IMG/VR virus record: IMGVR_UViG_3300044878_000023
Coordinates: 1 to 45,011 of that record
Length of the DNA: 45,011 bases
Source of the DNA: a virus
Lineage: Duplodnaviria > Caudoviricetes
Direction: 5' to 3' (one strand)
Shown here in pieces: positions 2,267 to 44,877 of the stretch (positions are counted from its first letter, which is position 1; every line of letters starts with the position of its first letter). Both the position numbers and the translations under genes were made by a program. The notes beneath the pieces were generated by a model, which saw only the letters and a list, made by a program, of their open reading frames with translations, ran no database searches and was not told the DNA's origin.

Positions 2267-2267
2267 T

Positions 2268-2295
2268 CGCAGTATTTACATACCCTATTATGAGA
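2268..2295 (+). promoter_or_regulatory. copy of phage-specific promoter-like motif
   Basis: CGC-agtatt-TACA-taccc-TATTAT-GAGA matches the motif repeated at 37.6-44.1 kb. Confidence 0.75.
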
Positions 2296-2335
2296 ACCAC
2301 CAGTCATCCCCCATGGCTGGTGGTTCTCTTTTTTT
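2292..2335 (+). terminator. 16-bp hairpin + T7 directly after the promoter motif (attenuator or tiny RNA)
   Basis: GAGAACCACCAGTCAT-ccccc-ATGGCTGGTGGTTCTC-TTTTTTT. Confidence 0.75.
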
Positions 2336-2351
2336 CTTGAAAGGAAAACTG

Positions 2352-7622: not shown

Positions 7623-7990
7623 AAACTGCTGGCCACTAATGGCCACTTGGCCACTTATGGTCCCAGTTTTGTGGGCGTTACTGTCCGAACTTTTTGAAAA
7701 GTGGCCAAAAAAGTGGGCAATCTGGCCAGAAACGTAAAAATAAGTGGCCAGCTATTGTGGGCAATGTCCGAACTTTGTGGGCGCTATTTGCTTGAAAAAC
7801 GGTAATATCTTGCCGTTTTTAGGTGTTTTAGGGTCAAATAGCGCCCACACGTATTGTAAAACTGTCCAAGTTGGCCACTTGCCCACTTATTTCTTAAAAC
7901 TTTTATGGAAAGGAAAAAAGAGTATATATAAAGAGTTTTGTCCACAAAGTGGCCAAGTGGCCAAAAAAGAGGTTTTCGGACATTGCCCAC
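7623..7990. repeat. iteron-like repeat region, putative replication origin
   Basis: Many (AA)GTGGCCA/GTGGGC copies in both orientations; perfect inverted repeats 7776-7790/7835-7849 and 7757-7772/7975-7990; AT-rich core about 7887-7940. Confidence 0.6.
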
Positions 7991-8059
7991 GCATTCTATA
8001 CATGGGTTATAATAGAAGGGATGAGATGTGCGTTTTAAAACGCATACTCTAATTTTTTT
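7990..8059 (+). promoter_or_regulatory. promoter-motif copy followed by hairpin and T7
   Basis: CGC-attcta-TACA-tgggt-TATAAT-agaag; hairpin 8023-8049; T run 8053-8059. Confidence 0.6.
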
Positions 8060-8077
8060 GCAACGCACGAGGACTAT

Positions 8078-8950: not shown

Positions 8951-11719
8951 ATGAGTAAAGATGAAATGACAGATGCTAGTTTCCTTCGCCATGAAGGCGT
9001 CCTCCGTAAGTCGGGGCGCTATCCTTGGGGTAGTGGTGAGAATCCCGAACAACGGGGTCGTTCCTTCAAGGGACACATCGAAGAACTCCGCAAGAAGGGT
9101 ATGACTGATACTCAGATTGCGAAAGCATTCAGCGGAGTCGATGAAAACGGTAAAGCATACGTAATGACCACTACACAGCTTCGTGCTTTGACGTCTATTG
9201 CTAACGACGCCATTAAACGAGCTGAAGTCGGCCAAGCTATAAAGCTGAAAGAAAAGAATCTTTCGAACGTAGCTATCGGAAACATTATGGGTAAGAACGA
9301 GTCTTCTGTTCGAGCTCTACTGGCAGCTTCCGAAAAGTTTGACTCCGATGCCAACACCACCACAGCTAACATCATTCGTGATCAAGTTGAGAAGAATAAG
9401 TATGTTGACTTCGGTCAGGGGACCGAGAATCACCTAGGCGTGAGTAGTACTCGTCTGGGAACAGCGATTGCGATTCTCAAAGAAGAAGGCTACAAGGTTC
9501 ACTACATCAAAGCGGAACAGATGTCTGGTATGGGCAACTTTACCAGCGTTAAAGTCATCACTAAGGGTGATGTGATCTATTCTGACGTTCTCAAGAACAA
9601 GGATAAGATCGTTCCTCTTCGAGGCGATTCTGAGGATGGCGGTAAAACGTTCACAAACCTTGGAATGCTGCCTCCGCTCAACGTGCCGCTTAAGCGAGTT
9701 GGTGTTCGTTATGCGGAAGAAGGTGGTGCCGACAAAGACGGTGTCATCGAAATTCGTCGTGGCGTAAAAGATCTCGACATGGGGAATTCCCGCTACGCTC
9801 AGGTTCGAATCGGTGTTGATGGGACTCATTACCTAAAGGGTATGGCCATGTACAGCGATAACATTCCTGACGGTGTCGACATGGTCTTCAACACTAACAA
9901 GAGTGATACCGGCGACAAGCTCAAAGCTATGAAGCCTCAAAAAGTAAGTGATGACGACCCAAACCCATTCGGTTCGGCCGTTAAGCAGATTACGAAGAAG
10001 AATGCTGATGGATCAGAAACGGTCATTTCAGCACTCAACATCGTAAATGAGGAAGGCGATTGGACTAAGTGGTCTAACACCTTCTCATCTCAGATGCTGT
10101 CAAAACAGAGTGCGATTCTTGCAAAAGAACAGCTCAAGCAGCGTTATGATTCTAAAAAGGCTGAATACGACGAAATTACGGCTCTTACCAACCCTGTTGT
10201 GAAACAGCGTTTGCTGGAGTCGTTTGCCGACGGTGCCGATTCTGCTGCAGTCCATTTGAAAGCAGCCGGTCTTCCTAGAACTGCAAACCATGTCATTCTC
10301 CCTATTAACAGTCTTAAGGATCATGAAGTTTATGCTCCTAAATACAACGATGGTGAGAAAGTCGTTCTAGTTCGACACCCTCATGGTGGAACTTTCGAAA
10401 TTCCGGAACTCACGGTCAATAACAAGAACCGTGAGGCTAATGGCGTTATTAAGCAAGCCCGAGATGCTATTGGTATCAATTCCAAGGTTGCGGAACGTCT
10501 GTCTGGCGCAGACTTCGATGGAGACACTGTTCTTGTAATTCCTAACCCTCAATCAGGGCCTTACCGAGTAAAGAGCTCTGCTCCCTTGGAAGGACTCAAG
10601 AACTTCAATCCTCAGAAGCTATATAAGCTTCCTGATGATGCGCCTAAAATGTCGGCCAAATCTAAGGGTCAGCAGATGGGTGACGTCTCTAATCTGATTA
10701 CGGACATGACCATTAAGGGTGCTCCCTTTAATGAGATCGCTCGTGCAGTCAGACACTCTATGGTAGTTATTGATGCTGAGAAACATCATCTCGACTATAA
10801 GCAGTCTGCTAAAGACAATGGTATTGCGCAACTTAAGAAACAGTACCAGATGAAGCCTGATGGTAAAACGGGTGGCGCATCAACTATTGTCTCTCGTGCC
10901 AAGGGTGAAGTAAGGGTTGCCGAAAGGAAACTCCGATCTGCTAAAGACGGCGGACCTATTGATCCTAAGACTGGTAAGAAGGTCTATGTAGACACTGGTG
11001 AGAGCTACCGTAAATGGGATAAAGACAAGCAAGAATACGTTGGGCCTGAGATACCCAAGACTACTAATGTCAAACGTATGGACTATGTGGATGACGCACA
11101 TGCTCTAGTCTCTGATCCCGGCACTGTTATCGAACGCACCTATGCAGACCATGCTAATAGACTTAAGGTTCTGGCTAATGAGTCTAGGAAAGAAGTCTAT
11201 GCTACTAAGCCTGTTCCCTATAGCCCCTCTGCAAAGAAGGCTTACGCACAGGAAGTAACCCAGCTTAATGCAAAGCTTAATGAGGCGCTCAAAAACAAGC
11301 CCCTTGAAAGACAAGCTCAGCTGGTAGCAGGTAGTATTGTAGCCACCAAGAGGGATGCCAATCCTGACATGGATGCTGCTGAACTAAAGAAGATCAAAGG
11401 TCTTGCTCTTGCTGAAGGACGTGCTAGAACAGGTGCTAAACCACAGGCTATCAAGGTAGAGCCTCGTGAATGGGAAGCCATACAGGCTGGCGCTATTAGT
11501 ACTAACATGCTCAACAAGATCCTTGATCAGGCAGACCTTAATGTAATCAAGGAACTGGCTACACCAAGGGACAAGAAGGCTGTCACCGCAGGCACTCTAT
11601 CTAGGGCTAAGTCCATGATGGAGAAGGGATACACACAGAGTGAGATAGCATCAGCTCTTGGTGTATCAGCGAGTACTCTTGATCGAGCACTCAACCCTAC
11701 CACTACCACTGAAGACTAA
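8951..11719 (+). CDS. putative single-subunit two-barrel (YonO/RdRP-like) RNA polymerase with HTH domains
   Basis: DKDGVI, QVR..YLKG, VRHP, LSGADFDGD (DFDGD at nt 10511-10525), GDVSN, HSMVVIDAEK in canonical order; N- and C-terminal HTH-like segments. Confidence 0.75.
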   Translation: MSKDEMTDASFLRHEGVLRKSGRYPWGSGENPEQRGRSFKGHIEELRKKGMTDTQIAKAFSGVDENGKAYVMTTTQLRALTSIANDAIKRAEVGQAIKLKEKNLSNVAIGNIMGKNESSVRALLAASEKFDSDANTTTANIIRDQVEKNKYVDFGQGTENHLGVSSTRLGTAIAILKEEGYKVHYIKAEQMSGMGNFTSVKVITKGDVIYSDVLKNKDKIVPLRGDSEDGGKTFTNLGMLPPLNVPLKRVGVRYAEEGGADKDGVIEIRRGVKDLDMGNSRYAQVRIGVDGTHYLKGMAMYSDNIPDGVDMVFNTNKSDTGDKLKAMKPQKVSDDDPNPFGSAVKQITKKNADGSETVISALNIVNEEGDWTKWSNTFSSQMLSKQSAILAKEQLKQRYDSKKAEYDEITALTNPVVKQRLLESFADGADSAAVHLKAAGLPRTANHVILPINSLKDHEVYAPKYNDGEKVVLVRHPHGGTFEIPELTVNNKNREANGVIKQARDAIGINSKVAERLSGADFDGDTVLVIPNPQSGPYRVKSSAPLEGLKNFNPQKLYKLPDDAPKMSAKSKGQQMGDVSNLITDMTIKGAPFNEIARAVRHSMVVIDAEKHHLDYKQSAKDNGIAQLKKQYQMKPDGKTGGASTIVSRAKGEVRVAERKLRSAKDGGPIDPKTGKKVYVDTGESYRKWDKDKQEYVGPEIPKTTNVKRMDYVDDAHALVSDPGTVIERTYADHANRLKVLANESRKEVYATKPVPYSPSAKKAYAQEVTQLNAKLNEALKNKPLERQAQLVAGSIVATKRDANPDMDAAELKKIKGLALAEGRARTGAKPQAIKVEPREWEAIQAGAISTNMLNKILDQADLNVIKELATPRDKKAVTAGTLSRAKSMMEKGYTQSEIASALGVSASTLDRALNPTTTTED

Positions 11720-11736: not shown

Positions 11737-11985
11737 TTGGCTGCTGCTACTGAGTATCTACTATCAACAACAGACAATCCATACAATCCTTTCACTGAGT
11801 TCGATCAGTGGAATGCGTACGACATGCAAGTTGGTCATCACACACTGGCTTTGCTAGCCCGGTGCGCCATCACTAGCGATGAGTTGTCTGAACTTGATCA
11901 GAGTCAGGCGATCGATCTCGCTATTAATGAGATTGTTGATTACAATGCTTCGGGAATGCATATCAAAGTGCCTGAACCAAGCTAA
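11737..11985 (+). CDS. hypothetical protein (LxTxDNPYNPF motif)
   Basis: AAAGGAG RBS, TTG start; last gene before the predicted genome end. Confidence 0.75.
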   Translation: MAAATEYLLSTTDNPYNPFTEFDQWNAYDMQVGHHTLALLARCAITSDELSELDQSQAIDLAINEIVDYNASGMHIKVPEPS

Positions 11986-12050: not shown

Positions 12051-12055
12051 TGTAT

Positions 12056-12064
12056 CGCCGACCT
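12056..12064 (+). other. putative 9-nt 3' cohesive end (cos junction) CGCCGACCT
   Basis: Resembles the CGCCGnCCT overhangs I recall for this phage group; lies in non-coding gap upstream of the packaging/structural genes. Confidence 0.65.
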
Positions 12065-12135
12065 CTTAAAAAATGCCCCGGGGGTAAAATCCGGGGAACG
12101 ATTTGACCTAAAACAATCCGGCGAAAGGTTCCACC

Positions 12136-12351: not shown

Positions 12352-12359
12352 TTTGGAAC

Positions 12360-12395: not shown

Positions 12396-12397
12396 CC

Positions 12398-17982: not shown

Positions 17983-18428
17983 CCGCTCATGGTGTGGAAT
18001 TTACTGAAGATGAGCTTGCTCAATCTGGTGTAAAAGGTATGCGTTGGGGTCGACGTAAGAAGCAGTCTTCTTCGGAAGATAGCAGAGATGCTGAGCCTTC
18101 CAAACCTCGTGTTAAAGACATGAGTGACGACGACCTTAGGTCGGCAATCAATCGACTAAAAATGGAGAAAGAATTTGCGACGCTAACTACTCCTCAAGTA
18201 AATGCGGGTAAAAAGCTTGTCGGTAAAATGCTTCTCGATATTGGTCAGCAGATCGCTAAGGAATACGTTATTGCACAAGCCAATAGGAGTATCTACGGGC
18301 ATCCGGGCGGTATGAAAGCAGCTCTAGCAGCCGCTGAAGCTGCGGCTAAAAATCCAGAAAAAATAGCTAAAGCCGCTACAGCTGTCGCGCGTCCAGTAAT
18401 GCAGCTGAACAAGAACCACGGACTATAG
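17955..18428 (+). CDS. hypothetical, probable head-associated protein
   Basis: LAQSGVKGMRWGRR motif, MSDDDLR..INRL; GGAGGTG RBS. Confidence 0.7.
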   Translation: MGNTAANILTAHGVEFTEDELAQSGVKGMRWGRRKKQSSSEDSRDAEPSKPRVKDMSDDDLRSAINRLKMEKEFATLTTPQVNAGKKLVGKMLLDIGQQIAKEYVIAQANRSIYGHPGGMKAALAAAEAAAKNPEKIAKAATAVARPVMQLNKNHGL

Positions 18429-18443: not shown

Positions 18444-20192
18444 ATGGCCCTATCTAACACAGCAACACCCATTTATTATGGGAGATTCCGCGAGCAAGTG
18501 CTCCGTGGAGAAATCCCCGTATGTAAAGAGATCGCTGCCGAAATGTATCGGATTGATGCGCTCATCGCCAATCCTACTTACTACTATGACAACCTAGCTA
18601 TTAATGGTTTCATTAAATACTGCGAGAATGAGCTCACCCTAACAGACGGTAGTGATTTCCGTATGCTCGAAAGCTTTAAGCTTTGGGCGGAGCAGATCTT
18701 CGGATGGTACTGGTTCGAAACACTCACCGTGTACGAACCGTCTCCCGATAATCATGGCGGACGATACATTCAAAAGACTTTCAAGCGAAGACTGACGGTA
18801 AAGCAATACTTGATCGTTGCTCGTGGCGCAGCTAAGTCTATGTATGCCGAATGTATCCAGAGCTACTTTCTGAATGTGGATACGGAAACCTCGCATCAGA
18901 TCACTACTGCTCCGACTATGAAGCAGGCCGACGAAGTCATGTCGCCTTTCCGTACGGCGATCACTCGCTCGCGCGGACCTTTGTTCAAGTTCCTTACCGA
19001 AGGATCACTTCAGAACACAACGGGCAATAAGATGAATCGAGTCAAGCTTGCTTCTACGAAGAAGGGTATTGAGAACTTCCTGACGGGATCGCTTCTAGAA
19101 GTTCGCCCCATGAAGGTCGATAAGCTTCAGGGTCTCAGACCAAAAATCTCTACGGTTGACGAATGGCTTTCTGGAGACGTTCGAGAAGATGTCGTGGGCG
19201 CTATCGAGCAGGGTGCGTCTAAGCTAGAGAACTATCTGATCGTTGCGATCAGCTCTGAGGGTACTGTCCGTAACGGTAGCGGCGACACCATCAAAATGGA
19301 ACTAGCTGACATGCTCAAGGGCGACTTCTATGCGCCTCACGTTTCTATCTGGCACTATAAGCTCGATGAACTGGAGGAAGTGAATGATGCTAGCATGTGG
19401 GAAAAAGCGCAACCTAACATCGGGCAGACAGTCTCCTACGATACTTACCAGCGAGATGTTGAACGAGCTGAGAAAGCACCTGCATCTCGGAACGATATCT
19501 TGGCTAAGCGCTTCGGAATTCCCATGGAGGGATATACGTACTTCTTCAGTTACGAAGAGACGGAAATCCATAAGCGTGTACCAAACTTCTGGCAGCTACC
19601 TTGTGCTATGGGAGCTGACCTCTCACAGGGTGATGACTTCTGTGCCTTCACTTTCCTGTTTCCTTTGCGCAATGGGGACTTTGGAGTAGTAACCCGAAGC
19701 TACATCTCTGAGAACACACACCTTAAGCTTTCTAGTGGTCCTCGCCAGAAGTATGAAGAATTCATTAAAGAGGCGAGTCTTCACGTACTTCCGGGAATCG
19801 TGCTAGACATGATGGCGGTCTACGATGATCTTGACAAGTTTATCGAAGAGCAAGGTTATGACGTTCGGGCCTTTGGGTTCGACCCCTATAACGCTAAAGA
19901 GTTCGTTACTCGCTGGGAACAGGAGAATGGACCCTTTGGTATTGAGAAAGTCCCTCAGGGAGCTCGTACAGAATCTGTTCCACTCGGTGAACTAAAGCAA
20001 CTTAGTGAGCGCCGTATGCTCTTGTTCGATCAGTCTCTCATGAGCTTTGCTATGGGTAACGCCATCACAATGGAGGATACTAATGGTAACCGTAAGCTCT
20101 TGAAGAAACGTGCAGACCAGAAGATTGATAATGTGGCTGCTCTGATGGACGCATATGTAGCATACAAAGCCAACAAGGAGGCGTTTGAGTGA
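18444..20192 (+). CDS. terL: terminase large subunit
   Basis: Walker A VARGAAKS, Walker B TVDE, nuclease GADLSQGDDF, FDPYNA, KIDNVAA; AGGAGG 7 nt before ATG. Confidence 0.93.
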   Translation: MALSNTATPIYYGRFREQVLRGEIPVCKEIAAEMYRIDALIANPTYYYDNLAINGFIKYCENELTLTDGSDFRMLESFKLWAEQIFGWYWFETLTVYEPSPDNHGGRYIQKTFKRRLTVKQYLIVARGAAKSMYAECIQSYFLNVDTETSHQITTAPTMKQADEVMSPFRTAITRSRGPLFKFLTEGSLQNTTGNKMNRVKLASTKKGIENFLTGSLLEVRPMKVDKLQGLRPKISTVDEWLSGDVREDVVGAIEQGASKLENYLIVAISSEGTVRNGSGDTIKMELADMLKGDFYAPHVSIWHYKLDELEEVNDASMWEKAQPNIGQTVSYDTYQRDVERAEKAPASRNDILAKRFGIPMEGYTYFFSYEETEIHKRVPNFWQLPCAMGADLSQGDDFCAFTFLFPLRNGDFGVVTRSYISENTHLKLSSGPRQKYEEFIKEASLHVLPGIVLDMMAVYDDLDKFIEEQGYDVRAFGFDPYNAKEFVTRWEQENGPFGIEKVPQGARTESVPLGELKQLSERRMLLFDQSLMSFAMGNAITMEDTNGNRKLLKKRADQKIDNVAALMDAYVAYKANKEAFE

Positions 20193-33200: not shown

Positions 33201-35246
33201 AAGGGTCTCGTAGGTGTTGGAGCGATGCTCACAGCGCTCTCGATATTCTCTAACATGACGAAGGCAAATAAGGGTGCGATCGCATCGGGTGTTGGTCTTA
33301 TTCTTCTGGGTACCGCGCTTAAGATTATGGCTAGTGCCCTCAGTGATTTCGCTGCTATGAATGTTGGTAGCCTTGTACAAGGTCTCGTAACCATGGCTCT
33401 AGTCTTGGCTATGATCTCTCGCTTTGCGGCTATAACTGGTGACAACAAGAACCTCCTTAAGACTGCCGCATCATTGGTAATCATTGGCTTCGCTTTGAAG
33501 ATCATGGCTTCTGCGATTGGCGACTTTGCAGCATTCAGTTGGGAGGAACTCGCCAAGGGTCTCGTAGGTATGACGTTTGCTCTTAGCGGTATTTCTACAG
33601 CTATGGCTGCACTGCCTAAGAATATGCTTGCTAATGCAATTGGACTGATTGCAGTTGGTCTAGCATTGAAGATCATTGCTTCGGCATTGATGGATATGGG
33701 TAATATGTCATGGGAACAGATCGCGAAGGGTCTCATAACTCTCGCGGGTGCGCTCTTGATCATATCTATAGCGGTTATAGCGATGCAGGGGTCTATTCTT
33801 GGTGCCGCAGCAATTCTTATTGTTGCAGCAGCGATCGGTATCCTCGCACCGTCACTCAAGCTGCTTGGCGACATGTCTTGGGATCAGATCCTTCATGGAC
33901 TAGCTGCTTTGGCAGGTATATTCATCATCCTCGGTCTTGCCGGTTTGGTTCTGACACCTCTGGTGCCGGTCCTATTCGCGCTAGGTATAGCATTGGGTAT
34001 GATGGGTATCGGTTTGTTCGGTGTTGGCTTGGGTACGGTATTGTTTGCGGCAGGCCTCATCGCTATCACCGCAGCTTTGACCGTGTCTGGCCCATTGCTT
34101 ATCGCATTTGTGATGTCGCTGCTAGCTCTTATACCAATGGCTATGGAAGAATTGGGCAAGGGTATTGTGGCATTCGCTGGCGTTATCGGCAATGCTATGC
34201 CAGTGTTCATTGCCGCATTCGTTAAGCTGCTATTGGGCTTGCTTACGGCTATCGACATTATATTGCCACGGCTTATGACTACATTGTGGTCGCTTATTGT
34301 TGCACTGGTGGATCTGATTGTTCGTGCTGTACCGCTATTTGTGGATGCTGCTATGAAGATTCTCATCGGCCTCGTTAAGGGTATCGCAGATAATATCGGC
34401 CTACTTATTGATGAAGTGACACGGCTTATCACCGAGTTCATAGATGGTATCACACGAGGGCTACCTAGGATTATCGATTCTGGCGTGAAACTTATAGTTG
34501 CATTCCTCAAGGGTATCGGCGACAACGTTCAAAAGGTTACCGATGCAGCAGCAGATCTGATTATTAAGTTCGTGAATGGTCTTGCTGCTACGATTGAAAC
34601 TAAGTCTCAGGAACTGCGTGATGCAGGTCTGAGGCTTGCCGGAGCGATCATTGATGGTATGACTGGTGGTCTCGCTACACGAGCTAAAGAGGTTGCTGAT
34701 GGCGCGTGGAAGATGGGTCAGGATGCTCTTGCATCTATTGCTGGCGCCATCGACTCTAACTCGCCATCTAAGGAAACTCATAAGTTGGGTACATATTTCG
34801 GTGATGGTTTCATTGGGGGTATCGCCTCAATGGTCCCGAATGTGTCTAGGAGTGCGGGTGCCATGGGTACCAATGCTGTTGACACACTTAAGAAGACCAT
34901 CTCGGATATCAATAGCGTTGTTCCCGATAACGTCGAAATGACTCCTACTATTCGTCCTGTGCTTGACTTATCTGCGGTTAAGAAAGACTCCCGTCTTATT
35001 GGCGGCATGATCAAGTCTCCATCACTCACGGTCGATACTTCATATTCGCGGGCTGCGTCGATTTCGGCGAGTGTTCGTTCTAATGGAGAGGAAGTAGTCC
35101 AGACTAAGACTGGCGCTATTCCGGAAACTGGTACTAACGTTACATTCAACCAGTACAATAATTCGCCTAAGGCACTATCCAACGCCGAGATCTACAGGCA
35201 ATCGAATAACCAAATCTCTAAGATCAAGGAGGAGATCAAGAAGTAA
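30210..35246 (+). CDS. tape measure protein
   Basis: About 1680 aa; tape-measure domain (LNAYSDKTIYNF), hydrophobic repeats with periodic W, IDSNSPSK. Confidence 0.93.
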   Translation: MSASIEERVVSIKFDNAKFEANVKTTIRSLDSLKKSIDFSGGIKALGDLDAASKKIDLGFDNKAFGTSVQSTIRAADNLKKNLNFDSTVHALGDLDSAGKKVNLRLDPTAFQIGAKGVMDAATTIKQNLNFESVQRGFGNLKMSAQNFSFQNVVTGAQNVRKSIADMDLATKAVSFLPITDGAERAKTSISAMSIAGIAAIGALGAKAALIGPQMAANLFLDPAKSGLAEYETNLGSIQTIMSNTQWENKSLGDVNGALDELNAYSDKTIYNFAQMADSVGKFTSAGVSLDDSTAAIKGISNLAALSGSNSNQAATAMQQLSQEMAAGKVGLEGWNSVVNAGMGGKVFQDALIETARNQGSNVDALIKKNGSFRQSLQDGWVTTKVMNETLSKMTGDLTDKQLKAMGYNDDQIVGIQKMAKNAQDAATKIKTFSQLTGTLSETTGSGWSQTWKLILGDFEQAKEMWTNVYGVLGKLVQGSADARNNLLSDWNKLGGRTEMIWAVRSAFMNLMAVVTPIKEAFREVFPPTTGKQLYIITQNIRLFINALAPGTEQISLIKNTFKLLFVIIKIGLSIITGAIGIVVAFFKAFATGGDSVKGSMKPLTDFLGTVADKLANSTFVKDFFDGLAKGATVLGTALGKVVPYIMQFVGVLGTLAYDISGYAMYFVSRFARIVGGTLVDGFVIAITFIGRLAEIVAIATKAFMEGGLELALTRVRERLASFGRLGDRISEMWNSLTAGAARFWEQIKPLREAIAKMFGDIGKNISEVFSDVNFDDSLDLVNTGLLAGLFIIFRKTFKKLLGMGDGVKEGLFARLDTSIESINGVLDSLSGTLQAMQQNLKADTLMKIAIAIGILTISVVVLSMIDSGKLTKALIGIGVMVVILTKAMEALDKISMGSGFLKIPFIAASMILLAIAIAILAIPVLMLSKLSWSELLKGLAGVGVLMFFLSKAAESMAKNPANLIATGIGLIAVAIAIKILASAVGDFAKLSWGDMIKGLVGVGAMLTALSIFSNMTKANKGAIASGVGLILLGTALKIMASALSDFAAMNVGSLVQGLVTMALVLAMISRFAAITGDNKNLLKTAASLVIIGFALKIMASAIGDFAAFSWEELAKGLVGMTFALSGISTAMAALPKNMLANAIGLIAVGLALKIIASALMDMGNMSWEQIAKGLITLAGALLIISIAVIAMQGSILGAAAILIVAAAIGILAPSLKLLGDMSWDQILHGLAALAGIFIILGLAGLVLTPLVPVLFALGIALGMMGIGLFGVGLGTVLFAAGLIAITAALTVSGPLLIAFVMSLLALIPMAMEELGKGIVAFAGVIGNAMPVFIAAFVKLLLGLLTAIDIILPRLMTTLWSLIVALVDLIVRAVPLFVDAAMKILIGLVKGIADNIGLLIDEVTRLITEFIDGITRGLPRIIDSGVKLIVAFLKGIGDNVQKVTDAAADLIIKFVNGLAATIETKSQELRDAGLRLAGAIIDGMTGGLATRAKEVADGAWKMGQDALASIAGAIDSNSPSKETHKLGTYFGDGFIGGIASMVPNVSRSAGAMGTNAVDTLKKTISDINSVVPDNVEMTPTIRPVLDLSAVKKDSRLIGGMIKSPSLTVDTSYSRAASISASVRSNGEEVVQTKTGAIPETGTNVTFNQYNNSPKALSNAEIYRQSNNQISKIKEEIKK

Positions 35247-37584: not shown

Positions 37585-37642
37585 TGAGCGCTTCGCGGTA
37601 AAAACACGCCTTATAGTGAGATAACTCTTGAAAGGAGAACTC

Positions 37643-37927
37643 ATGTTTAACAAAGACAAGAACCCCGCCGGAATCGATCTGGTGATTAAACTTGCAACTG
37701 ATGAACTGCTGAAACTTCAGCCTGACGACCCCAAGTACGTCCAGACCGTTGATATGATCGAACGGCTCAACAAGATCGCCCTTAGTAATAAGAGCGACCG
37801 CGTGAGCAAAGATGGTATTATCGCCGGTGTGGTAAACCTTGTTGGTATCGGGATGATCATTCGGCACGAACAGTTGAACGTAATCACCTCGAAAGCTCTC
37901 GGCTTCGTGTTCAAGGCCCGCGCTTAA
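37643..37927 (+). CDS. cassette gene, membrane-associated hypothetical
   Basis: Motif, AAAGGAG, ATG 37643; hairpin 37954-38009. Confidence 0.8.
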   Translation: MFNKDKNPAGIDLVIKLATDELLKLQPDDPKYVQTVDMIERLNKIALSNKSDRVSKDGIIAGVVNLVGIGMIIRHEQLNVITSKALGFVFKARA

Positions 37928-37953
37928 CATGAAGTAACTGACCCCAGTTAATC

Positions 37954-38009
37954 AAAATAGTAGCCGTGTGTAAGAACTAAACCCTCTTACACACGGCTTT
38001 CTATTTTTT
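37954..38009 (+). terminator. intrinsic terminator
   Basis: AGCCGTGTGTAAGA...TCTTACACACGGCT followed by T-rich tail. Confidence 0.8.
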
Positions 38010-38136
38010 CAAGCGCTAGATTTACAGGGCCTCCTTTATTTTAGAAATCCAAAAAATGCCCGGGAGGAAATTTTCACAAAACAATCGCAAGATTTACGAG
38101 GGCTATAGTGAGAACCCCTACTAACAAAGGAACCCC

Positions 38137-38346
38137 ATGAAAAACTTTAAGCAAACGACAATCGTCATTCAGAACCTGATGGTCGACGACTACGTCAAAG
38201 TGGCTGGAGTGTTGTACCGTGTTCACCAGATCGAAATGATCGGTGACGCCTACATCATCCAGCTCCACAACGCACGTCGTCCGAAAATCCAAGCTTTGAT
38301 GACTCTCGAGTCGAACACCTTGATGAAGATCTGGAACCAAAAGTAA
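38137..38346 (+). CDS. cassette gene, hypothetical
   Basis: Motif 38086, AAAGGA RBS, terminator 38352-38384. Confidence 0.8.
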   Translation: MKNFKQTTIVIQNLMVDDYVKVAGVLYRVHQIEMIGDAYIIQLHNARRPKIQALMTLESNTLMKIWNQK

Positions 38347-38442
38347 CACTCAGCTAGGAGAGCCTACAAGCTCTTCTAGTTTTTCCTCGCAAGAATTACA
38401 GGCCTTATAGTGAGAAAGAACCCTCTATTATAAGGAACTAAA

Positions 38443-38538
38443 ATGACTCAGTACCAGCACGATAACCGTATGCTGCACCTCGAATGGGAAACCAAATTCG
38501 CTGCAGCAATCGTTACCGCCGGAATGACCAAGAAGTAA
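38443..38538 (+). CDS. cassette gene, 31-aa peptide (not in ORF track)
   Basis: MTQYQHDNRMLHLEWETKFAAAIVTAGMTKK; motif 38388, TAAGGA RBS, terminator 38557-38589. Confidence 0.75.
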   Translation: MTQYQHDNRMLHLEWETKFAAAIVTAGMTKK

Positions 38539-38643
38539 CTACTAGAACCAAACCTCAATTAGGAGAGCCTACAAGCCCTTCTAATTTTTCGCGAGTTTTA
38601 CACGGCGTATAGTGAGAAAGTAACCCCTATGAAAGGAATTACA

Positions 38644-38868
38644 ATGACCGCTATCACCCAGCTTACCGCTGAACTGAACGAACTCAACACTGCCCTCGGC
38701 GTGGTTGAAGCTCAGACAATTGACAAAGGTTTCATGCTCCGTAAGGACGAAGAAACCCTGTACATGCATCTGATCACCAACCTCGACTCGAAGCAGCTTG
38801 AGCTCGATCAGCTCCAGCAGAACAAGCGAACGATCAAGTCGTTTATCCCCCACTTCAATAAGAAGTAA
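38644..38868 (+). CDS. cassette gene, coiled-coil hypothetical
   Basis: Motif 38590, AAAGGA RBS, terminator 38874-38907. Confidence 0.8.
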   Translation: MTAITQLTAELNELNTALGVVEAQTIDKGFMLRKDEETLYMHLITNLDSKQLELDQLQQNKRTIKSFIPHFNKK

Positions 38869-38969
38869 CACTCAAAATAGGAGACCTAACAAGGCCTTCT
38901 ATTTTTTCGCAATGTCGCAGAAAATACACGCCTTATAATGAGAAGATAACCCCTATGAAAGGAAATATC

Positions 38970-39146
38970 ATGTCCAAGCACATCAAGAACACGCCCCTCG
39001 TACGCCTTGCTGCAACCGCAAAGATGATCAAAACCGACATCTCTAAGATCCCGACAGGAATCAAAGAGAAGAAGGCCACGTTCACCGAGCGAGTTCAGCA
39101 GGAAGTCGAACAGCGTCGCCACGCGCTTAACATGCTTACCGATTAA
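38970..39146 (+). CDS. cassette gene, basic hypothetical
   Basis: Motif 38916, RBS, terminator 39156-39190. Confidence 0.8.
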   Translation: MSKHIKNTPLVRLAATAKMIKTDISKIPTGIKEKKATFTERVQQEVEQRRHALNMLTD

Positions 39147-39243
39147 GGTATCATCAAAATAGGAGACCCTAACACGGTCTTCTATTTTTTCGTAGGCTTT
39201 ACATGCCTTATAGTGAGAACTAACCCCTATTTAAGGAATAGAA

Positions 39244-39459
39244 ATGTCTGATACACAACGAGTATTGGTAAAAGGAAACGAATTCAAGACCCATGATATG
39301 GTGACCATTGGAGGCGCGCAACATTTTGTAACATCAACCGAACCTATCGGCAGAGATTACACTAAGTTGTACGTCACACACATGGACATCGATAGCAAGG
39401 TCATGACCGACTCCAACCTAACCGTAAGTAACAACTTGCATTTTTCTGTAATACGCTAG
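39244..39459 (+). CDS. cassette gene, hypothetical (beta-rich, weakly like 38137 ORF)
   Basis: Motif 39191, TAAGGA RBS, terminator 39463-39497. Confidence 0.8.
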   Translation: MSDTQRVLVKGNEFKTHDMVTIGGAQHFVTSTEPIGRDYTKLYVTHMDIDSKVMTDSNLTVSNNLHFSVIR

Positions 39460-39546
39460 TTTAATGAGAGTCCCTAACACGGACTCTTATTTTTTTTCGC
39501 AACGATTACACGTCCTATAGTGAGAACCCCTATGAAAGGAAAAGTA

Positions 39547-39738
39547 ATGACTACTCTAGTCGATACCCTCGAAAACGCCACCGACGAAGAAATCTCGGAA
39601 GCAAGCAATAAGCTAGCTAAGCGCGTCACTAAGAAATTCATTATTAGTGTCGTAATTAGCGTCGCTGCACACTTCGCTTCTGCCGCCCTCGTCCGCGTGA
39701 TCGAGAATCACAAGAATACCCGAGAACTGACCGAATAG
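39547..39738 (+). CDS. cassette gene, single-TM protein
   Basis: Motif 39498, RBS, terminator 39745-39778. Confidence 0.8.
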   Translation: MTTLVDTLENATDEEISEASNKLAKRVTKKFIISVVISVAAHFASAALVRVIENHKNTRELTE

Positions 39739-39827
39739 AACCTCAAGCTAGAAGAGCCTACAAGCCCTTCTAGTTTTTCGTAGATTCTACAAGGGCTATA
39801 ATGAGAACCCCTATGAAAGGAATTATA

Positions 39828-40076
39828 ATGAAGAAGTCTACTGTGATAACAGTCGCTACTACCCTCGCCGTGCTTTACGTAATCGGCAAAGACGCCAACA
39901 AACAGAAAGAAATCGATGATTTGAAAGCTCGACTAAATGCAGTCGGGCGATTCAACGACCTCTATTACAAAACTCTGGATACAACCGTCAGAAAGCTAGA
40001 TCGCGAAGATCGACGAGAAACAGTGCGAAAATTTAATGAAGAAGTTGATTTTATTCGTGTAACTAACCGATTCTAA
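39828..40076 (+). CDS. cassette gene, N-terminal TM plus coiled coil
   Basis: Motif 39779, RBS, terminator 40082-40114. Confidence 0.8.
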   Translation: MKKSTVITVATTLAVLYVIGKDANKQKEIDDLKARLNAVGRFNDLYYKTLDTTVRKLDREDRRETVRKFNEEVDFIRVTNRF

Positions 40077-40168
40077 CCCTCAGCTAGAAGAGCCTACAAG
40101 CCCTTCTAGTTTTTCGCAAGAATTACACGCCCTATAGTGAGAAAGTAACCCCTATGAAAGGAAAACCA

Positions 40169-40294
40169 ATGCGTAAGTATGGATTCGGAAACTTTATCCT
40201 CGATCTGATCGGAGTACTCCTAACTGGAGGCCTCTGGTTCATCTGGATATTTATCCGTGAAATGCGCCACATTGCCAATTCCCGACGGTATTAA
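40169..40294 (+). CDS. cassette gene, 41-aa membrane peptide (not in ORF track)
   Basis: MRKYGFGNFILDLIGVLLTGGLWFIWIFIREMRHIANSRRY; motif 40115, terminator 40301-40333. Confidence 0.8.
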   Translation: MRKYGFGNFILDLIGVLLTGGLWFIWIFIREMRHIANSRRY

Positions 40295-40386
40295 CCCTCG
40301 GACTAGAAGAGCCTACAAGCCCTTCTAGTTTTTCGTCAGTTTTACATGCCTTATAGTGAGAACCCCCTACTAACAAAGGAAACACT

Positions 40387-40644
40387 ATGAAGACTATATC
40401 TTACACCAAAGAACTTACCGTCTCGGAAACCCCCACCAAAGAGTCCCTCAAAGAAGCTTTTTTGGCCTACAAGCCCATATCTGTGAAAGATTTTATCGTC
40501 ACATGTATGGCGCATGTATCGGCCCTGAAAGCTCTCGAACGAGGATGGCTCGATGAGCCCGGAACCTACGAGATTACTGACATTTGGTTCAGTAAGCGAG
40601 CCCCATGGCACAAAATGATTTGTAATGTACGAAAGATCTCATAA
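40387..40644 (+). CDS. cassette gene, hypothetical
   Basis: Motif 40334, RBS, terminator 40649-40679. Confidence 0.8.
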   Translation: MKTISYTKELTVSETPTKESLKEAFLAYKPISVKDFIVTCMAHVSALKALERGWLDEPGTYEITDIWFSKRAPWHKMICNVRKIS

Positions 40645-40733
40645 CCCGATAAGGGGCCCTAACACGGCCTCTTATTTTTCGCGAAATTTACACGTCTTAT
40701 AGTGAGAAGTTAACCCCTATGAAAGGCAGTAAA

Positions 40734-40916
40734 ATGTCCCGCAATCTGAAGGTTTACACCGAAATGTCCCGCACGCAATTTGCCAAGGAGATTGGACGGA
40801 CTCTTGTAGTTGGAACTGCACAGAGCACCGCAATCTACCTCGGCATGATCGCAACCGGATACATCGTTGTAGCCGTCAATAAAGCGCTGAAGAACGCCCG
40901 CAAAAAGGAAAACTAA
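40734..40916 (+). CDS. cassette gene, single-TM protein
   Basis: Motif 40680, RBS, terminator 40921-40952. Confidence 0.8.
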   Translation: MSRNLKVYTEMSRTQFAKEIGRTLVVGTAQSTAIYLGMIATGYIVVAVNKALKNARKKEN

Positions 40917-41002
40917 CCCTAATGAGGGACCCTAACACGGTCTCTCATTTTTCGCTAGCTTTACATGCCTTATAATGAAGAACCCCTATGAAAGGAAAAG
41001 TA

Positions 41003-41218
41003 ATGTCAACTGCTAAGCAGAAATTCGAAGACGTTAAAGCTAAGACTATCCAATTCGTGAAGGATCGTCCTCTGGAATCAGCAATGATCGCCTCGGTAGC
41101 ACTGACCACAGTCGCCAAGGTACTCAATGCCATTTCCGCAGAACGAAACTCGAAGGCTTGGAGACGCGAAGTCCAGCGTCGAGAACGTAAAACTTACCAA
41201 GACTACACCCGAAGGTAA
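41003..41218 (+). CDS. cassette gene, hypothetical
   Basis: Motif 40953, RBS, terminator 41223-41258. Confidence 0.8.
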   Translation: MSTAKQKFEDVKAKTIQFVKDRPLESAMIASVALTTVAKVLNAISAERNSKAWRREVQRRERKTYQDYTRR

Positions 41219-41314
41219 CTTCAAAAGCTAGAAGAGCCTACAAGCCCTTCTAGTTTTTCGTCGCGATATTTACAAGCGTTATAGTGAGAACCACCCTCTA
41301 TGAAAGGAATCAAA

Positions 41315-41506
41315 ATGAAGAACATCACATTTTCCGACAAGAGCGTACACATTACCGGAAGGGATGCGAACATACTTGCAGGTTTTGCCATCGTTGGCAT
41401 TGCTGTATCGTCTGTCACATTCTTCCGGCTTTGCTACGCCATTGGCGAGAAAGTTGGTGGAGTCGTTTACGACCTCCGTCACAAGAAGAGTTCACAACTC
41501 CACTAA
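41315..41506 (+). CDS. cassette gene, single-TM protein
   Basis: Motif 41262, RBS, terminator 41505-41538. Confidence 0.8.
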   Translation: MKNITFSDKSVHITGRDANILAGFAIVGIAVSSVTFFRLCYAIGEKVGGVVYDLRHKKSSQLH

Positions 41507-41588
41507 ATGGGAGGGCCTAGCAAGCCCTTCTATTTTTTCGTAGGATCTACATGCCCTATAGTGAGAAGACACCCACTAAGGAGCAACT

Positions 41589-41801
41589 ATGAAAAATACA
41601 AAACCGCCACTTAATGTCATCGTAAAGAACCATCGCTACAATTGTAACGGCGTCCCCACATTCCGAAATGCCATACTAATGGCTATTTTAGGATGGACTG
41701 GAGGCGTGTCGAGCAAAGTGCCCGATGGTTGGTACGAATATAACGTTGAGTGGCGAATGATCTATTTCCAAGCATCTCTAATACCTGTAGCATCTGATTA
41801 A
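41589..41801 (+). CDS. cassette gene, hypothetical
   Basis: Motif 41539, AAGGAG RBS, terminator 41804-41835. Confidence 0.8.
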   Translation: MKNTKPPLNVIVKNHRYNCNGVPTFRNAILMAILGWTGGVSSKVPDGWYEYNVEWRMIYFQASLIPVASD

Positions 41802-41886
41802 CTAATAAGGGTCCCTAACACGGACTCTTATTTTTCGCAAAAATTACACGCCCTATAGTGAGAACCCCTACTAACAAAGGAACATC

Positions 41887-42123
41887 ATGTTTAAGAACCA
41901 CAAGCTTGAACTCCGCCTTACCAAAGACCGCAAAAGCGAAGACTTGGTCGATGCAACACCCTCGATTACCAAAGAGGACGTAATTCATATTTCGAAGAAC
42001 GTCGTCAAGTACGTAGTCGGTGGAGTGCTCATCGTCCTCGCTGCTGGCGCTGCCCTTGATACTGCGAAGTATGCAGCTATGACTGGAATCGAAAACCGAT
42101 CACCCAAAGAGTTGGAAGACTAA
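41887..42123 (+). CDS. cassette gene, single-TM protein
   Basis: Motif 41836, RBS, terminator 42128-42159. Confidence 0.8.
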   Translation: MFKNHKLELRLTKDRKSEDLVDATPSITKEDVIHISKNVVKYVVGGVLIVLAAGAALDTAKYAAMTGIENRSPKELED

Positions 42124-42208
42124 CCCTAATAAGGGGCCCTAACACGGCCTCTTATTTTTCGTCAGTATTACATGGCTTATAGTGAGAACCCCTATGAAAG
42201 GAACTACT

Positions 42209-42424
42209 ATGGAAACGAAAATCGATGCTGAAGAAATGCTAGCAGAGCTTTTGTTTGAGTGGAATGCTACGGTTCAGCCTAGAAGTATGGTGCTCGGTCT
42301 TACCGAACTCATCAAACAAGCTGAAGTAGAACCGCTAAGCCTTACACGAACAACAAAGTTGCTGAAGCTAAATCTTAAACTCACCGAGATTAAGAACCTA
42401 TACCCCAATCTTTACGTGTTCTAA
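42209..42424 (+). CDS. cassette gene, hypothetical
   Basis: Motif 42160, RBS, terminator 42423-42457. Confidence 0.8.
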   Translation: METKIDAEEMLAELLFEWNATVQPRSMVLGLTELIKQAEVEPLSLTRTTKLLKLNLKLTEIKNLYPNLYVF

Positions 42425-42484
42425 AAATAAGGGGCCCTAACACGGCCTCTTATTTTTCGTCGCAGAAATTACACATCCTATAAT

Positions 42485-42664
42485 GAGAAGAACCCCAACA
42501 ACATACTAGAATATGTTGGGCCATCACTAATGACGAAAAGTCCCTCGTCAACGTTTAGTAATGATGGTTGAGCCATTAAGGCTCTTCTCCAAGCCCAATT
42601 CAGTTTGACCCAACCTCCATGGTTGAGGTGATCCTACTGCATTGGGTCCTATTTTTTTTTTTTT
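42485..42664 (+). ncRNA. putative small RNA A (about 180 nt, multi-branch)
   Basis: Motif 42461, no RBS or ORF; GAGAAGA/TCTTCTC closing stem around several hairpins; ends in T13. Confidence 0.7.
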
Positions 42665-42726
42665 GCCCATGAAACTGATTGCCCAAAAGTCTGACCAGCC
42701 CTCGCAGAAATTACATGGCCTATAAT

Positions 42727-42788
42727 GAGAGAGTACACATAGCAATATGTCGAAGAGAGTGTAGCAATACATTCACTCTTATTTTTTT
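42727..42788 (+). ncRNA. putative small RNA B (about 60 nt, two GCAA tetraloops)
   Basis: Motif 42703; ACATA-GCAA-TATGT and AGTGTA-GCAA-TACATT; closing stem; T7. Confidence 0.7.
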
Positions 42789-42816
42789 GAGTCGCAGGTT
42801 TTACACGGCTTATAAT

Positions 42817-42895
42817 GAGAAGAAGACCACCTCACCACGAGCTACTAGCGAGTGCGATGGTCGCGTAGAGCAATCTACATCTTCTCACTTTTTTT
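42817..42895 (+). ncRNA. putative small RNA C or attenuating leader (about 75 nt three-way junction)
   Basis: Motif 42793; GAGAAGA/TCTTCTC, GACCA/TGGTC, GTAGA-GCAA-TCTAC; T7. Confidence 0.65.
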
Positions 42896-42920
42896 GTCTC
42901 TCTTGAAAGGTAACCCCCTG

Positions 42921-43694
42921 ATGATTCGACTTGCTCGCTATGCTGGGGCAGCACGAAAGCTTGTCGCTGATAACTCTCCGGCAATCTTGACAGCCGCAGC
43001 AGTAGCGGGTGTAGTAACAACTGTATATCTTGCAGTTCGAGTTACCCCGCAAGCACACACCGACATTCTGAACGAACAATCTGAGCGTAGCGATGAGGTC
43101 ACTCTTGTCGAGAAAGTCCAGCTCACCTACAAGTACTACATCCCGGCAGCCGCTACTGGCGCTGCTACGATCGCGTGCATCATTGGCGCAAATACGGTCA
43201 ATACCAAACGCAGTACTGCTCTGGCAAGTGCTGTGGGTCTTTCGGAAGCAGCTTTCAAGAACTACCGTGAAAAAGTGGTAGAACACATCGGTGTTTCTAA
43301 AGAGACTGCTGTCCACGATGATGTCATGAAAGACGTTGTGGAGAACAACCCGCCAAACGAAGGTTCGATCATCGTCACTGGTAAGGGTAGGCAACTCTTC
43401 CGTGACGACTACACGGGCGCATATTTTGAGAGCAGCATGGAAGCTGTTAAACGTGCCATTAACGACACGAATTATCAGATTCTGAACGAAGACTACGCAT
43501 CGCTTAACGATCTGCTTCGACGCCTTGGCGCACGACCAAGCACCGTAGGAAGTGAAGTTGGTTGGAACACTGAGAAGCGTCTCGAAGAGCGATATTCAGC
43601 ACAGATCATCACGGACGACAACGAAGACACTCGTGCGTGCATCGTGATCACCTACAGCAAGAACCCCATTCGCGACTACGACAGGTTTGGATAA
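42921..43694 (+). CDS. hypothetical protein (DUF6353-like, membrane-associated N-terminus)
   Basis: NSPAILT...GVVTT..LA...TP, YRE.V.E..G, SLND....LG......G..VGW; GAAAGG RBS. Confidence 0.75.
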   Translation: MIRLARYAGAARKLVADNSPAILTAAAVAGVVTTVYLAVRVTPQAHTDILNEQSERSDEVTLVEKVQLTYKYYIPAAATGAATIACIIGANTVNTKRSTALASAVGLSEAAFKNYREKVVEHIGVSKETAVHDDVMKDVVENNPPNEGSIIVTGKGRQLFRDDYTGAYFESSMEAVKRAINDTNYQILNEDYASLNDLLRRLGARPSTVGSEVGWNTEKRLEERYSAQIITDDNEDTRACIVITYSKNPIRDYDRFG

Positions 43695-43700
43695 GTAAAA

Positions 43701-44099
43701 ATGCTATCACCGGATTTTGCAGCAAATGTTGACGATCAGATCGAAGAGTCCCGTAAGGTTCTCTACGCGAAATCGAAGGCCTACAACACTGACGATCGCC
43801 TTTCGGCATTCAAGGTTGCTGGGGCATTGCAGGGCATCACCCCTCAGGCTGCTCTGGCGGGAATGATGTCGAAGCACACGGGCTCTATCTATCAGATGTG
43901 CCACAGCGAGAATACCTACACGATGGACGAGTGGACTGAGAAGATCACCGATCACATCAACTACCTTCTGAACTTGAAAGCTATCGTTGTAGAGCAGGAC
44001 AAACAAAGTCCTACTGAGTCCTACGTGTTCAGTATGCCAAAGACTGGTCCGACCTCACCCTCGCCCTTCCCGAACTCAATTCCCTGCAACTCGCAGTAA
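43701..44099 (+). CDS. all-alpha NTP-pyrophosphatase-like / nucleotide-modification-associated protein
   Basis: K.K.Y...DRL..FK...KH...W.EKI.D.INYL pattern. Confidence 0.55.
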   Translation: MLSPDFAANVDDQIEESRKVLYAKSKAYNTDDRLSAFKVAGALQGITPQAALAGMMSKHTGSIYQMCHSENTYTMDEWTEKITDHINYLLNLKAIVVEQDKQSPTESYVFSMPKTGPTSPSPFPNSIPCNSQ

Positions 44100-44117
44100 T
44101 AACACGTCCTATAATGA
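44092..44117 (+). promoter_or_regulatory. promoter-motif copy
   Basis: CGC-agtaat-AACA-cgtcc-TATAAT-GA. Confidence 0.75.
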
Positions 44118-44145
44118 CACCCTATATTATCTTGAAAGGATAATC

Positions 44146-44337
44146 ATGATCAAGAAAATCACCACCATGGTATCGACGAACCGACAGGTCATCGCTCGAA
44201 AGGCCCTGATCATCGGAGGAGTCGCCCTCGGCATTGTCGCAGGCGCCCTTCTGATCAAGCCCGAAGAAGAGACCATCGTCGTCATCGGCGAGACCGTGGA
44301 CGAAGAAACGACCACCGAAGAATCCCCGGAAAACTAG
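44146..44337 (+). CDS. cassette gene, single-TM protein with acidic tail
   Basis: Motif 44092, AAAGGA RBS, terminator downstream. Confidence 0.8.
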   Translation: MIKKITTMVSTNRQVIARKALIIGGVALGIVAGALLIKPEEETIVVIGETVDEETTTEESPEN

Positions 44338-44344: not shown

Positions 44345-44390
44345 GCAGGAGTACCCGTAAGCAATTACAGGTACTCCTGCTTTCATTTTT
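44345..44390 (+). terminator. intrinsic terminator with GCAA loop
   Basis: GCAGGAGTACCCGTAA-GCAA-TTACAGGTACTCCTGC-TTTCATTTTT. Confidence 0.8.
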
Positions 44391-44412
44391 GCACACACTC
44401 ACTCAGGAGAAA

Positions 44413-44877
44413 ATGATGACCGAATCAGTAGCTGCAAACGAAGAGTCCGAACTCGACCTTCAGATGCGAGCACGCAAGCTTGTACGTAACTACTACAACA
44501 AGCAGGTGGCTCCCGTCGAGGACTACCCTCTAGTAACTACCCAGCAGGTGTACGTTGTCTGGTTCGCTAAGGTTCTCGGTAACTGGAAAGCCATGCTTGG
44601 AACCGTGAACAGCGACGGACGATACTTCGAGGTAACTCACAACGGTGAGACAAGCGAAACGTATGTCGATGACTACGAGAAGCAGGGACAGATGGTAGTT
44701 TCTACTCCGTCCATTACTCGGGAGCGTAGGGAGCGGATTGACTACGCGACTCGTGAGGCGATGACGAAGTTCAAGGCTATTCGGAATCTTCACGAGGAAG
44801 GCAAAACCAATGCCGAGATTGCTAAAACTCTCGGTATCTCGGAGTCGTCCGTACGAGTTGTCTTCGAAGACTCATGA
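44413..44877 (+). CDS. DUF6275-like protein fused to C-terminal HTH
   Basis: VYVVWF.K.L.NWKA.L.T...DG.Y.E.T.NG...E.YVD.Y.K; GKTNAEIAKTLGISESSVR; AGGAG RBS. Confidence 0.7.
   Translation: MMTESVAANEESELDLQMRARKLVRNYYNKQVAPVEDYPLVTTQQVYVVWFAKVLGNWKAMLGTVNSDGRYFEVTHNGETSETYVDDYEKQGQMVVSTPSITRERRERIDYATREAMTKFKAIRNLHEEGKTNAEIAKTLGISESSVRVVFEDS

Follow-up and report, generated by a model that had tools for sequence, protein, structure and literature searches.

A fixed-geometry repeat in a siphophage genome is probably the promoter of the phage's own single-chain RNA polymerase

The virus record IMGVR_UViG_3300044878_000023, analysed here over its positions 1 to 45,011 (the whole stretch of 45,011 nucleotides (nt), hereafter the window), belongs to a siphophage of the 1706/ReqiPepy6/AM-AU-AW-BI-DJ-EL group. 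Its plus strand carries 22 copies of the element T-CGY-N7-ACA-N5-TATART-GA and, at 8951..11719, the gene of a 922-amino-acid (aa) single-chain two-barrel RNA polymerase (PHROG 4291), recognised by its catalytic motif and predicted fold. The repeat is a real, clade-wide promoter-type element with an unusual inferred start geometry, most likely read by the phage's own polymerase. Because the motif travels with this polymerase in phages of two bacterial phyla, we consider it probable that the 22 copies are promoters of this enzyme. An earlier note on this DNA had proposed a dedicated promoter read by the 922-aa polymerase or by a phage factor, and the geometry, the confinement to one clade and the predicted position of the start all support that proposal. 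Because the motif is clade-confined and the start is predicted right after the hexamer, the phage polymerase is a more probable reader than a phage activator that acts together with host sigma-A.

Scanning the window for CGY-N7-ACA-N5-TATART returned 20 matches on the plus strand and none on the minus strand, and CGY-N7-ACR-N5-TATART matched 21 times, compared to a mean of 0.04 and a maximum of 1 in 100 third-order Markov simulations. With a weight matrix, exactly 22 plus-strand sites scored 18.7-45.8 bits, and the next best sequence in the window reached only 4.4 bits. The earlier note had counted 22 copies with fixed spacing, 19 of them in 37594-42820 and the others at 44092, 2268 and 7990; number and positions were both borne out, its CGY-N6-(T)ACA being the same as CGY-N7-ACA. 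The N7 and N5 spacers are constant in length and free in sequence. Three copies deviate, with TATTAT at 2268, ACG at 38086 and AGAAG 3′ of the hexamer at 7990.

The 19 clustered copies (T-CGY-N7-ACR-N5-TATART-GAGA, by pattern and weight matrix) form a plus-strand array at 37593..42820, with CG starts at 37594, 38086, 38388, 38590, 38916, 39191, 39498, 39779, 40115, 40334, 40680, 40953, 41262, 41539, 41836, 42160, 42461, 42703 and 42793. The remaining three also lie on the plus strand. The copy at 44091..44119, found by the weight matrix, stands ahead of a 63-aa open reading frame (ORF) at 44146-44337; the copy with TATTAT is followed by a 16-base-pair (bp) hairpin and a T-run from the first base 3′ of the hexamer (2267..2337); and the weakest copy, also followed by a hairpin and a T-run (7989..8062), lies upstream of the VRR-NUC, Cas4-like, polymerase and 82-aa protein genes. 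A site orthologous to this last copy recurs across the clade. The claim that the structural operon is free of copies held as well: the window has none in the stretch that follows the polymerase gene up to and including the tape-measure gene, and among 308 sites in 25 genomes none falls in the structural block, where 116 would be expected under a uniform spread. Rare minus-strand copies occur in two relatives, at 6200 in G050 and at 55966 in G055 (joined coordinates), the latter facing the polymerase-operon copy.

Each of the first 16 array copies precedes one small ORF (31-94 aa) with a leader of 25-31 nt that contains a ribosome-binding site. In the array, 16 of 19 copies come immediately after a hairpin with a T-run, so that the cassette unit can be described as terminator, motif, ribosome-binding site and gene. 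Fifteen of these terminator-like hairpins with T-runs lie on the plus strand at 38355..42460, with their ends no more than about 8 bases from the CG of the following copy, and the sixteenth precedes the copy at 42793; one example, at 40072-40116, has a fold z-score of -4.3. The terminator loops in the window are mostly CTACAA or CTAACAC. Across clusters, C/A-rich loops (CTAACAC, CTACAA, CACAA) recur though the stems differ, which may reflect descent or a recognised loop.

When the genome and its relatives were scanned for the motif and for the DFDGD gene, as the earlier note had suggested, the motif proved confined to the polymerase-encoding clade. The strict pattern, searched in 14 of 64 parts of the IMG/VR database, was present in at least 163 stretches; for IMG/VR we estimate about 4,700 pattern matches, and 519 of 600 that were checked are relatives. 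Among the matches listed, 46 of the 48 contigs of at least 40 kilobases (kb) were searched for the polymerase, which was present in 42, and in 25 of the 25 motif-bearing records among them that are at least 90% complete; the four records without it are 69-88% complete. For the reverse comparison, 31 records were drawn from the longer contigs of about 93 loci selected by their polymerase, and a relaxed motif pattern was present in 29 of them and in 11 of the 12 complete ones, almost without exception on a single strand; the control gave 0-1 hits per record. The strict pattern occurs in 10 of 12 named phages, and FP_oengus, P078 and 1706 carry variants. With a matrix that was built solely from the window and a cut-off of 10 bits, 44 of 82 loci have a site 5′ of the polymerase operon (three controls: 1, 5 and 0). 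One bacterial genome bin, G001, includes eight contigs with the polymerase (C13, C19, C21-C24, C56 and C87) and therefore appears to collect phages of the polymerase family; among bacterial genomes of its family, single motif hits were found in 2 of 120 (control: 1).

According to the earlier note, the geometry does not fit a -35/-10 promoter, and this was confirmed by the lack of both a -35 element and an extended -10. No -35 element within one mismatch of TTGACA was found 16-18 nt upstream of the hexamer in any of the 308 sites; two-mismatch versions occur at 26 of the 308, which is not above background. The extended -10 TG is present in 0 of 22 window copies and in 10 of 308 sites overall, and a sigma consensus scan yielded 12 sites (8.1 expected), one of which is a motif copy. 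The TAnnnT core of a -10 box is present in 22 of 22 window copies and is lost across whole arrays of relatives, namely in FP_oengus (CTTTAT, 0/15), G065 (CTTAAT, 0/12) and G058 (TTAGAT, 4/21), as counted with genome-tuned matrices. If sites are chosen without the hexamer columns, TAnnnT is found in 0/5, 3/17 and 0/12 sites of FP_oengus, G058 and G065, respectively, and this hexamer-blind selection returns 280 plus-strand versus 4 minus-strand sites. The three lineages lie in separate parts of a quick tree, and what their arrays retain is the CG, the C of ACA, the final T of the hexamer and the purine behind it. Lactococcus phages retain ACA-N5-TATART and have mostly lost the CG box (P078 0/10, 1706 1/12). 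Sigma54 promoters have the spacing TGGCA-N6-TTGCW; a sigma54 -24/-12 promoter was rejected, since the TCGCA-N4-TTACA of the motif is two bases shorter and differs at key bases.

Transcription from sigma70-type promoters starts about 6-8 nt downstream of the -10 box. Among the 264 of 349 sites that had a callable downstream start, the ribosome-binding site begins 0-3 nt 3′ of the hexamer in 21 and 4-8 nt away in only 4; the short-leader sites include AGGAGGTGA at offset 0, and for one of them, at 1706 orf29, the start is the annotated one. We also folded 391 non-redundant leaders from 20 nt upstream, of which 74 end in a T-run-capped helix. These closing helices begin at -3 to +3 of the hexamer end in 47 of the 74 cases, compared to 1.9 in shuffles, although the 47 positions are not independent events because the leaders are partly homologous; 16 begin at exactly 0, one at -8 to -4 and nine at +4 to +9. 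At the copy before the polymerase operon, a terminator-like hairpin comes next in 25 of 58 non-redundant loci versus 2.3 in shuffles, which suggests attenuation of this operon. Because ribosome-binding sites and 5′-3′ RNA stems run from the first base 3′ of the hexamer, we placed the start there; in the simplest reading of these sequences, the first RNA base would be the purine 3′ of the hexamer or else the purine inside it, at most 2 nt earlier.

The 922-aa protein has the sequence GADFDGD at residues 519-525, an N-terminal HxG..SGRY tag and three conserved helix-turn-helix (HTH)-like units, two N-terminal (about 50-88 and 102-126) and one C-terminal (890-915). GADFDGD is invariant in 75 aligned polymerases, which had been chosen for DFDGD. 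In total, 250 phage records match the protein at 38-56% identity, and its relatives are found in phages of Arthrobacter, Gordonia, Streptomyces, Curtobacterium, Microbacterium, Rhodococcus, Lactococcus and Faecalibacterium. A model built from the 75-sequence alignment (predicted local distance difference test 83.9, predicted template modelling score 0.68) matched the folds of QDE-1 (E 1e-9), RDR2 and Thermus phage P23-45/P74-26 gp62 and gp64 (E 9e-7). The genes common to 23 of 23 compared genomes comprise structural, packaging, nuclease, helicase, primase-polymerase and DUF6353-like genes, the polymerase and its 82-aa neighbour. Among these shared genes no other HTH or sigma-like protein was recognised, although small divergent genes could escape recognition. 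The neighbour, an acidic protein of PHROG 4303 at 11737..11985 (plus strand), lies 3′ of the polymerase gene in 62 of 62 loci; an Atlas search returned no named family for it, and it is possibly a polymerase subunit or regulator.

The favoured explanation, that the phage polymerase reads the motif, can be set out as follows. The fused HTH units of the polymerase would bind the CG and ACA boxes, which are about one helical turn apart, the AT-rich hexamer would be opened, and RNA would be started at the next purine. With this purine as +1, CGY would occupy -24 to -22, ACA -14 to -12 and the hexamer -6 to -1, and the DNA would melt at the hexamer, as it does in T7-type promoters. The polymerase would arrive in the virion and transcribe the early one-gene cassettes, each consisting of promoter, ribosome-binding site, ORF and terminator, and the hairpin and T-run straight after +1 would tune down the replication and polymerase operons. 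The motif does not account for transcription of the structural genes, for which read-through across cos from the copy at 7990, the host polymerase or another specificity may be responsible. As a whole, a sigma-free one-chain system that combines a head-packaged polymerase, fused HTH units, a three-box promoter and a start right behind a -10 look-alike is put forward tentatively.

Delivery of the polymerase in the phage head appears somewhat more probable than its absence there. In GenBank the 1706 homolog, orf75, is annotated as 'structural protein', and this label is also given in the Pepy6 record; the orf75 label reportedly goes back to virion mass spectrometry by Garneau et al. in 2008. The N-terminal tag, which is present in 87 of 89 polymerases and which the model leaves unfolded, resembles the DUF7211 motif of head-module genes, making it a candidate head-loading signal judged by sequence. 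In relatives, a DUF7211-like tag stands at the start not just of the polymerase but also of one to eight genes that lie between head-tail connector and portal; the corresponding positions in the window are 17955-18428 and 8990-9030.

Several points weigh against this explanation. The co-occurrence of motif and polymerase reflects the shared ancestry of about 20 core genes and cannot alone single out the polymerase. No residue column of the polymerase cleanly tracked the motif variants among 28 genomes, a comparison that is confounded with the tree. In one polymerase-bearing relative, G053, a single clear site was found, and the polymerase operon has no copy ahead of it; because the 60 kb searched gave no tape-measure or DUF6353 match, the cassette region may be missing there. 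In all 22 window copies and in most lineages, the hexamer matches a sigma-A -10 box perfectly or nearly so, which calls for an explanation, and the host polymerase may use the TATAAT sites too. The short-leader sites all come from relatives and not from the window, and for 20 of the 21 the start was called in this analysis. The hairpins at +1 could also act on read-through RNA. Whole-chain template modelling scores of the polymerase model to solved polymerases are low, at 0.24-0.31. With respect to head delivery, the small 1706 proteins orf62 and orf71 are also labelled structural; because both come from outside the structural block, the label of orf75 may include carry-over. Finally, FP_oengus, which we take to be temperate, must for that reason switch on without a virion enzyme.

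A rather unlikely variant has the same reader and a different bootstrapping: host sigma-A would give a weak first round at TATAAT, sufficient for making the polymerase upon infection or induction, and the newly made phage polymerase would then use its own start, so that the enzyme need not be in the virion. Such a trigger independent of the virion is needed by temperate members, TATAAT is retained in most lineages, and the polymerase-operon copy has TATAAT in 38 of 58 loci, even in G058 with its TTAGAT array. However, the polymerase-operon copies of FP_oengus and G065 read TTTTAT and TTTATT, respectively, and the structural annotation of 1706 orf75 speaks for an enzyme brought in with the virion.

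It is improbable that the host sigma-A holoenzyme reads TATART as a -10 box while a phage protein on the CG and ACA boxes, be it a small activator or the polymerase through its HTH units, replaces the -35, as in T4 middle promoters. TAnnnT in all 22 window sites and most lineages, the fixed upstream boxes and the absent -35 would suit this arrangement; the window does hold another HTH gene, at 44389-44877, and fast-evolving activators could escape tblastn. However, whole arrays have CTTTAT, CTTAAT or TTAGAT, ribosome-binding sites and RNA stems start inside the 6-8 nt that a sigma-A start would omit, the ACA box falls in the sigma spacer position, and a polymerase with an invariant catalytic motif would need another target.

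We consider it very improbable that the copies are ordinary strong host promoters lacking a -35, as suggested for cluster DJ, with the upstream boxes as relics of cassette-boundary duplication. Many actinobacterial promoters do lack a -35 element. A sigma70 -10 TATAAT has also been described in the motif in the available text of PMC9671010 and PMC10868162. Against this stand the start geometry, a hexamer that is more variable than the CG and ACA boxes in several lineages, and the persistence of CG and ACA at fixed spacing in Actinomycetota and Bacillota phages whose terminators, leaders and genes have diverged. Least probable of all is a repeat that serves mainly as a recombination boundary for shuffling small genes, because, although repeats have been tied to rearranged cassettes (bioRxiv 2020.01.10.891226 and PMC11008172, available text) and terminator plus motif give about 80-90 nt of near identity, the strict strand bias, the constant place before ribosome-binding sites, the free N7/N5 spacers and the lone copies outside the array argue against it; cassette shuffling is likely a by-product and not the function.

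Several known systems resemble parts of the proposed one. T7/SP6-type promoters and the early promoters of the N4 virion polymerase are of fixed length, phage-specific and have a TATA-like melting box before a purine-rich start; they differ in the unrelated polymerase fold, and the hairpin promoter of N4 has no counterpart in the motif. In T4 middle promoters, a MotA box replaces the -35 upstream of a sigma70 -10 and the start lies about 7 nt after the -10, and T4-type PeSL cassettes are terminator-promoter units that bound small swappable genes. The proposed system differs from both in that the start is placed at the hexamer end and TAnnnT can be lost. In Thermus phage P23-45, according to the available text of PMC10770324, a virion two-barrel polymerase, gp96, is tied to an AT-rich motif before pre-early genes. 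Like the window, that phage combines a single-chain two-barrel enzyme with a repeated AT-rich motif before its earliest genes, including a polymerase gene, and the motif is co-distributed with its enzyme. P23-45, however, has a second polymerase, and its gp96 forms one chain with the tape-measure protein, whereas the window encodes a single polymerase, to which HTH units are fused, and its putative promoter of about 25 bp has three boxes.

YonO of SPbeta is, like the enzyme of the window, an approximately 100-kDa single-chain two-barrel DNA-dependent polymerase, and in the available text of PMC5467207 the late genes that it transcribes form a single operon with one start, and the promoter is undefined. 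The motif of the window instead avoids the late block and heads many early-type cassettes. A YonO-type late system was rejected, as no start before the late structural operon was found and the structural block holds none of the 308 sites.

Both the repeat and the polymerase are already in print. Intergenic motifs with a sigma70 -10 were described for Vardy and Conley of Gordonia cluster DJ (PMC9671010, PMC10868162), repeats ahead of starts for Mossy, Pherobrine and Burley (PMC11008172, PMC9753669), and a 32-bp repeat with proposed recombination for Giantsbane of cluster AU (bioRxiv 2020.01.10.891226), as far as the available texts go. These 50-bp and 43-bp DJ motifs and the Giantsbane repeat are like that of the window in phage group, in position downstream of tail genes and in having TATAAT before ATG, and the motif of the window occurs in 10 copies in Mossy and 12 in Giantsbane. 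The papers differ from our analysis in reading the repeat as a sigma70 -10, a translational start motif or a recombination boundary; their available text, logos in figures aside, mentions no upstream boxes, clade-wide conservation or polymerase link, and the available text of PMC7302621, PMC13313380 and bioRxiv 2022.11.23.517428 contains nothing on the repeat. On the side of the polymerase, Koert et al. described the phage group and noted DxDGD and terminal HTH domains (bioRxiv 842583), and the 1706 protein is listed as one of five YonO-like families (PMC2919709). The 922-aa protein is a member of this 1706-type family, known as 'HTH DNA-binding domain protein' or putative RNA polymerase, for which the available text of these two sources gives neither promoter nor activity. 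Literature searches, figures and bioRxiv supplements aside, returned no paper that links motif and polymerase.

The finding bears on promoter recognition by minimal two-barrel polymerases, which work without a sigma factor; the promoter of YonO is undefined in the available text of PMC5467207, and the polymerase family of the window is mostly annotated as an HTH protein despite 250 records and thousands of IMG/VR stretches. The precise promoter, its predicted +1, the natural variants (CTTTAT, TTAGAT and the CG-less Lactococcus form) and the existence of cultured phages that grow on laboratory hosts make the question directly testable. If our explanation is true, the published sigma70 reading of the repeat would be corrected, a YonO-like enzyme would have its first defined promoter, and Streptomyces, Gordonia or Lactococcus could be given an orthogonal expression tool. 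Early expression would then be independent of the host polymerase and could therefore explain a lineage that spans Actinomycetota and Bacillota hosts.

Behind five copies (2268, 7990, 42461, 42703 and 42793) lies a hairpin or short structured RNA instead of a ribosome-binding site, and none of these five structured RNAs of the window matched Rfam. The hairpin behind the copy at 2268 (2292-2337, z -8.2) is likely an attenuator or small RNA, and that behind 7990 spans 8014-8062 (z -3.6). On the plus strand of the array, copy 42461 is followed by a predicted small RNA at 42485..42590 (z -5.5), whose closing stem starts directly 3′ of the hexamer; a short, weakly supported structured leader or RNA at 42727..42790 (z -1.8), with a similar unit in G048, follows copy 42703; and a predicted small RNA or attenuator at 42817..42895 (z -4.0), in which a 5′-3′ stem from the first base is followed by a T-run, lies behind copy 42793 and upstream of the DUF6353 gene. 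Transfer RNA-like RNAs 1-4 nt from the hexamer end occur in FP_oengus (2934-3006), Mossy (34662-34734) and G060 (19310-19385, joined coordinates), some of them lacking a clear anticodon.

The plus-strand cos-like sequence CGCCGACCT and an adjoining A-tract/CCCCGGGG/T-tract element, at 12057..12094, mark the natural left genome end. CGCCGACCT is identical at the termini of named relatives, and the Pepy6 record annotates a cos overhang; because the sequence at about 12057 matches those termini, the window is a permuted, incomplete genome, and the primase-polymerase gene that is present in 23 of 23 compared relatives is missing from it. A hairpin of a G-run and a C-run at 12015-12066 lies 5′ of cos in nearly all relatives, and its loop has TCGCA, which is also the first box of the motif. 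The near-palindromic A-tract/CCCGGG/T-tract element occurs at 12068-12094, right of cos, and again inside the array at 38051-38077. The internal copy forms part of a plus-strand unit at 38014..38077, in which it follows a half motif (CGC-N7-ACA, no hexamer), 53 nt upstream of the second array hexamer. An internal CCCGGG element is found no more than 90 nt 5′ of a motif copy in 10 of 28 genomes, often at a spacing of 52-54 nt and frequently behind a hexamer-less half motif; it is possibly a packaging-protein site. A 590-nt non-coding stretch before the structural genes (12330-12920) contains several long inverted repeats without an Rfam match and could hold late control elements. Upstream of the copy at 7990, in 7630-7975, repeated AAGTGGCCA-like units in both orientations surround an AT-rich stretch, and this region is likely a replication origin.

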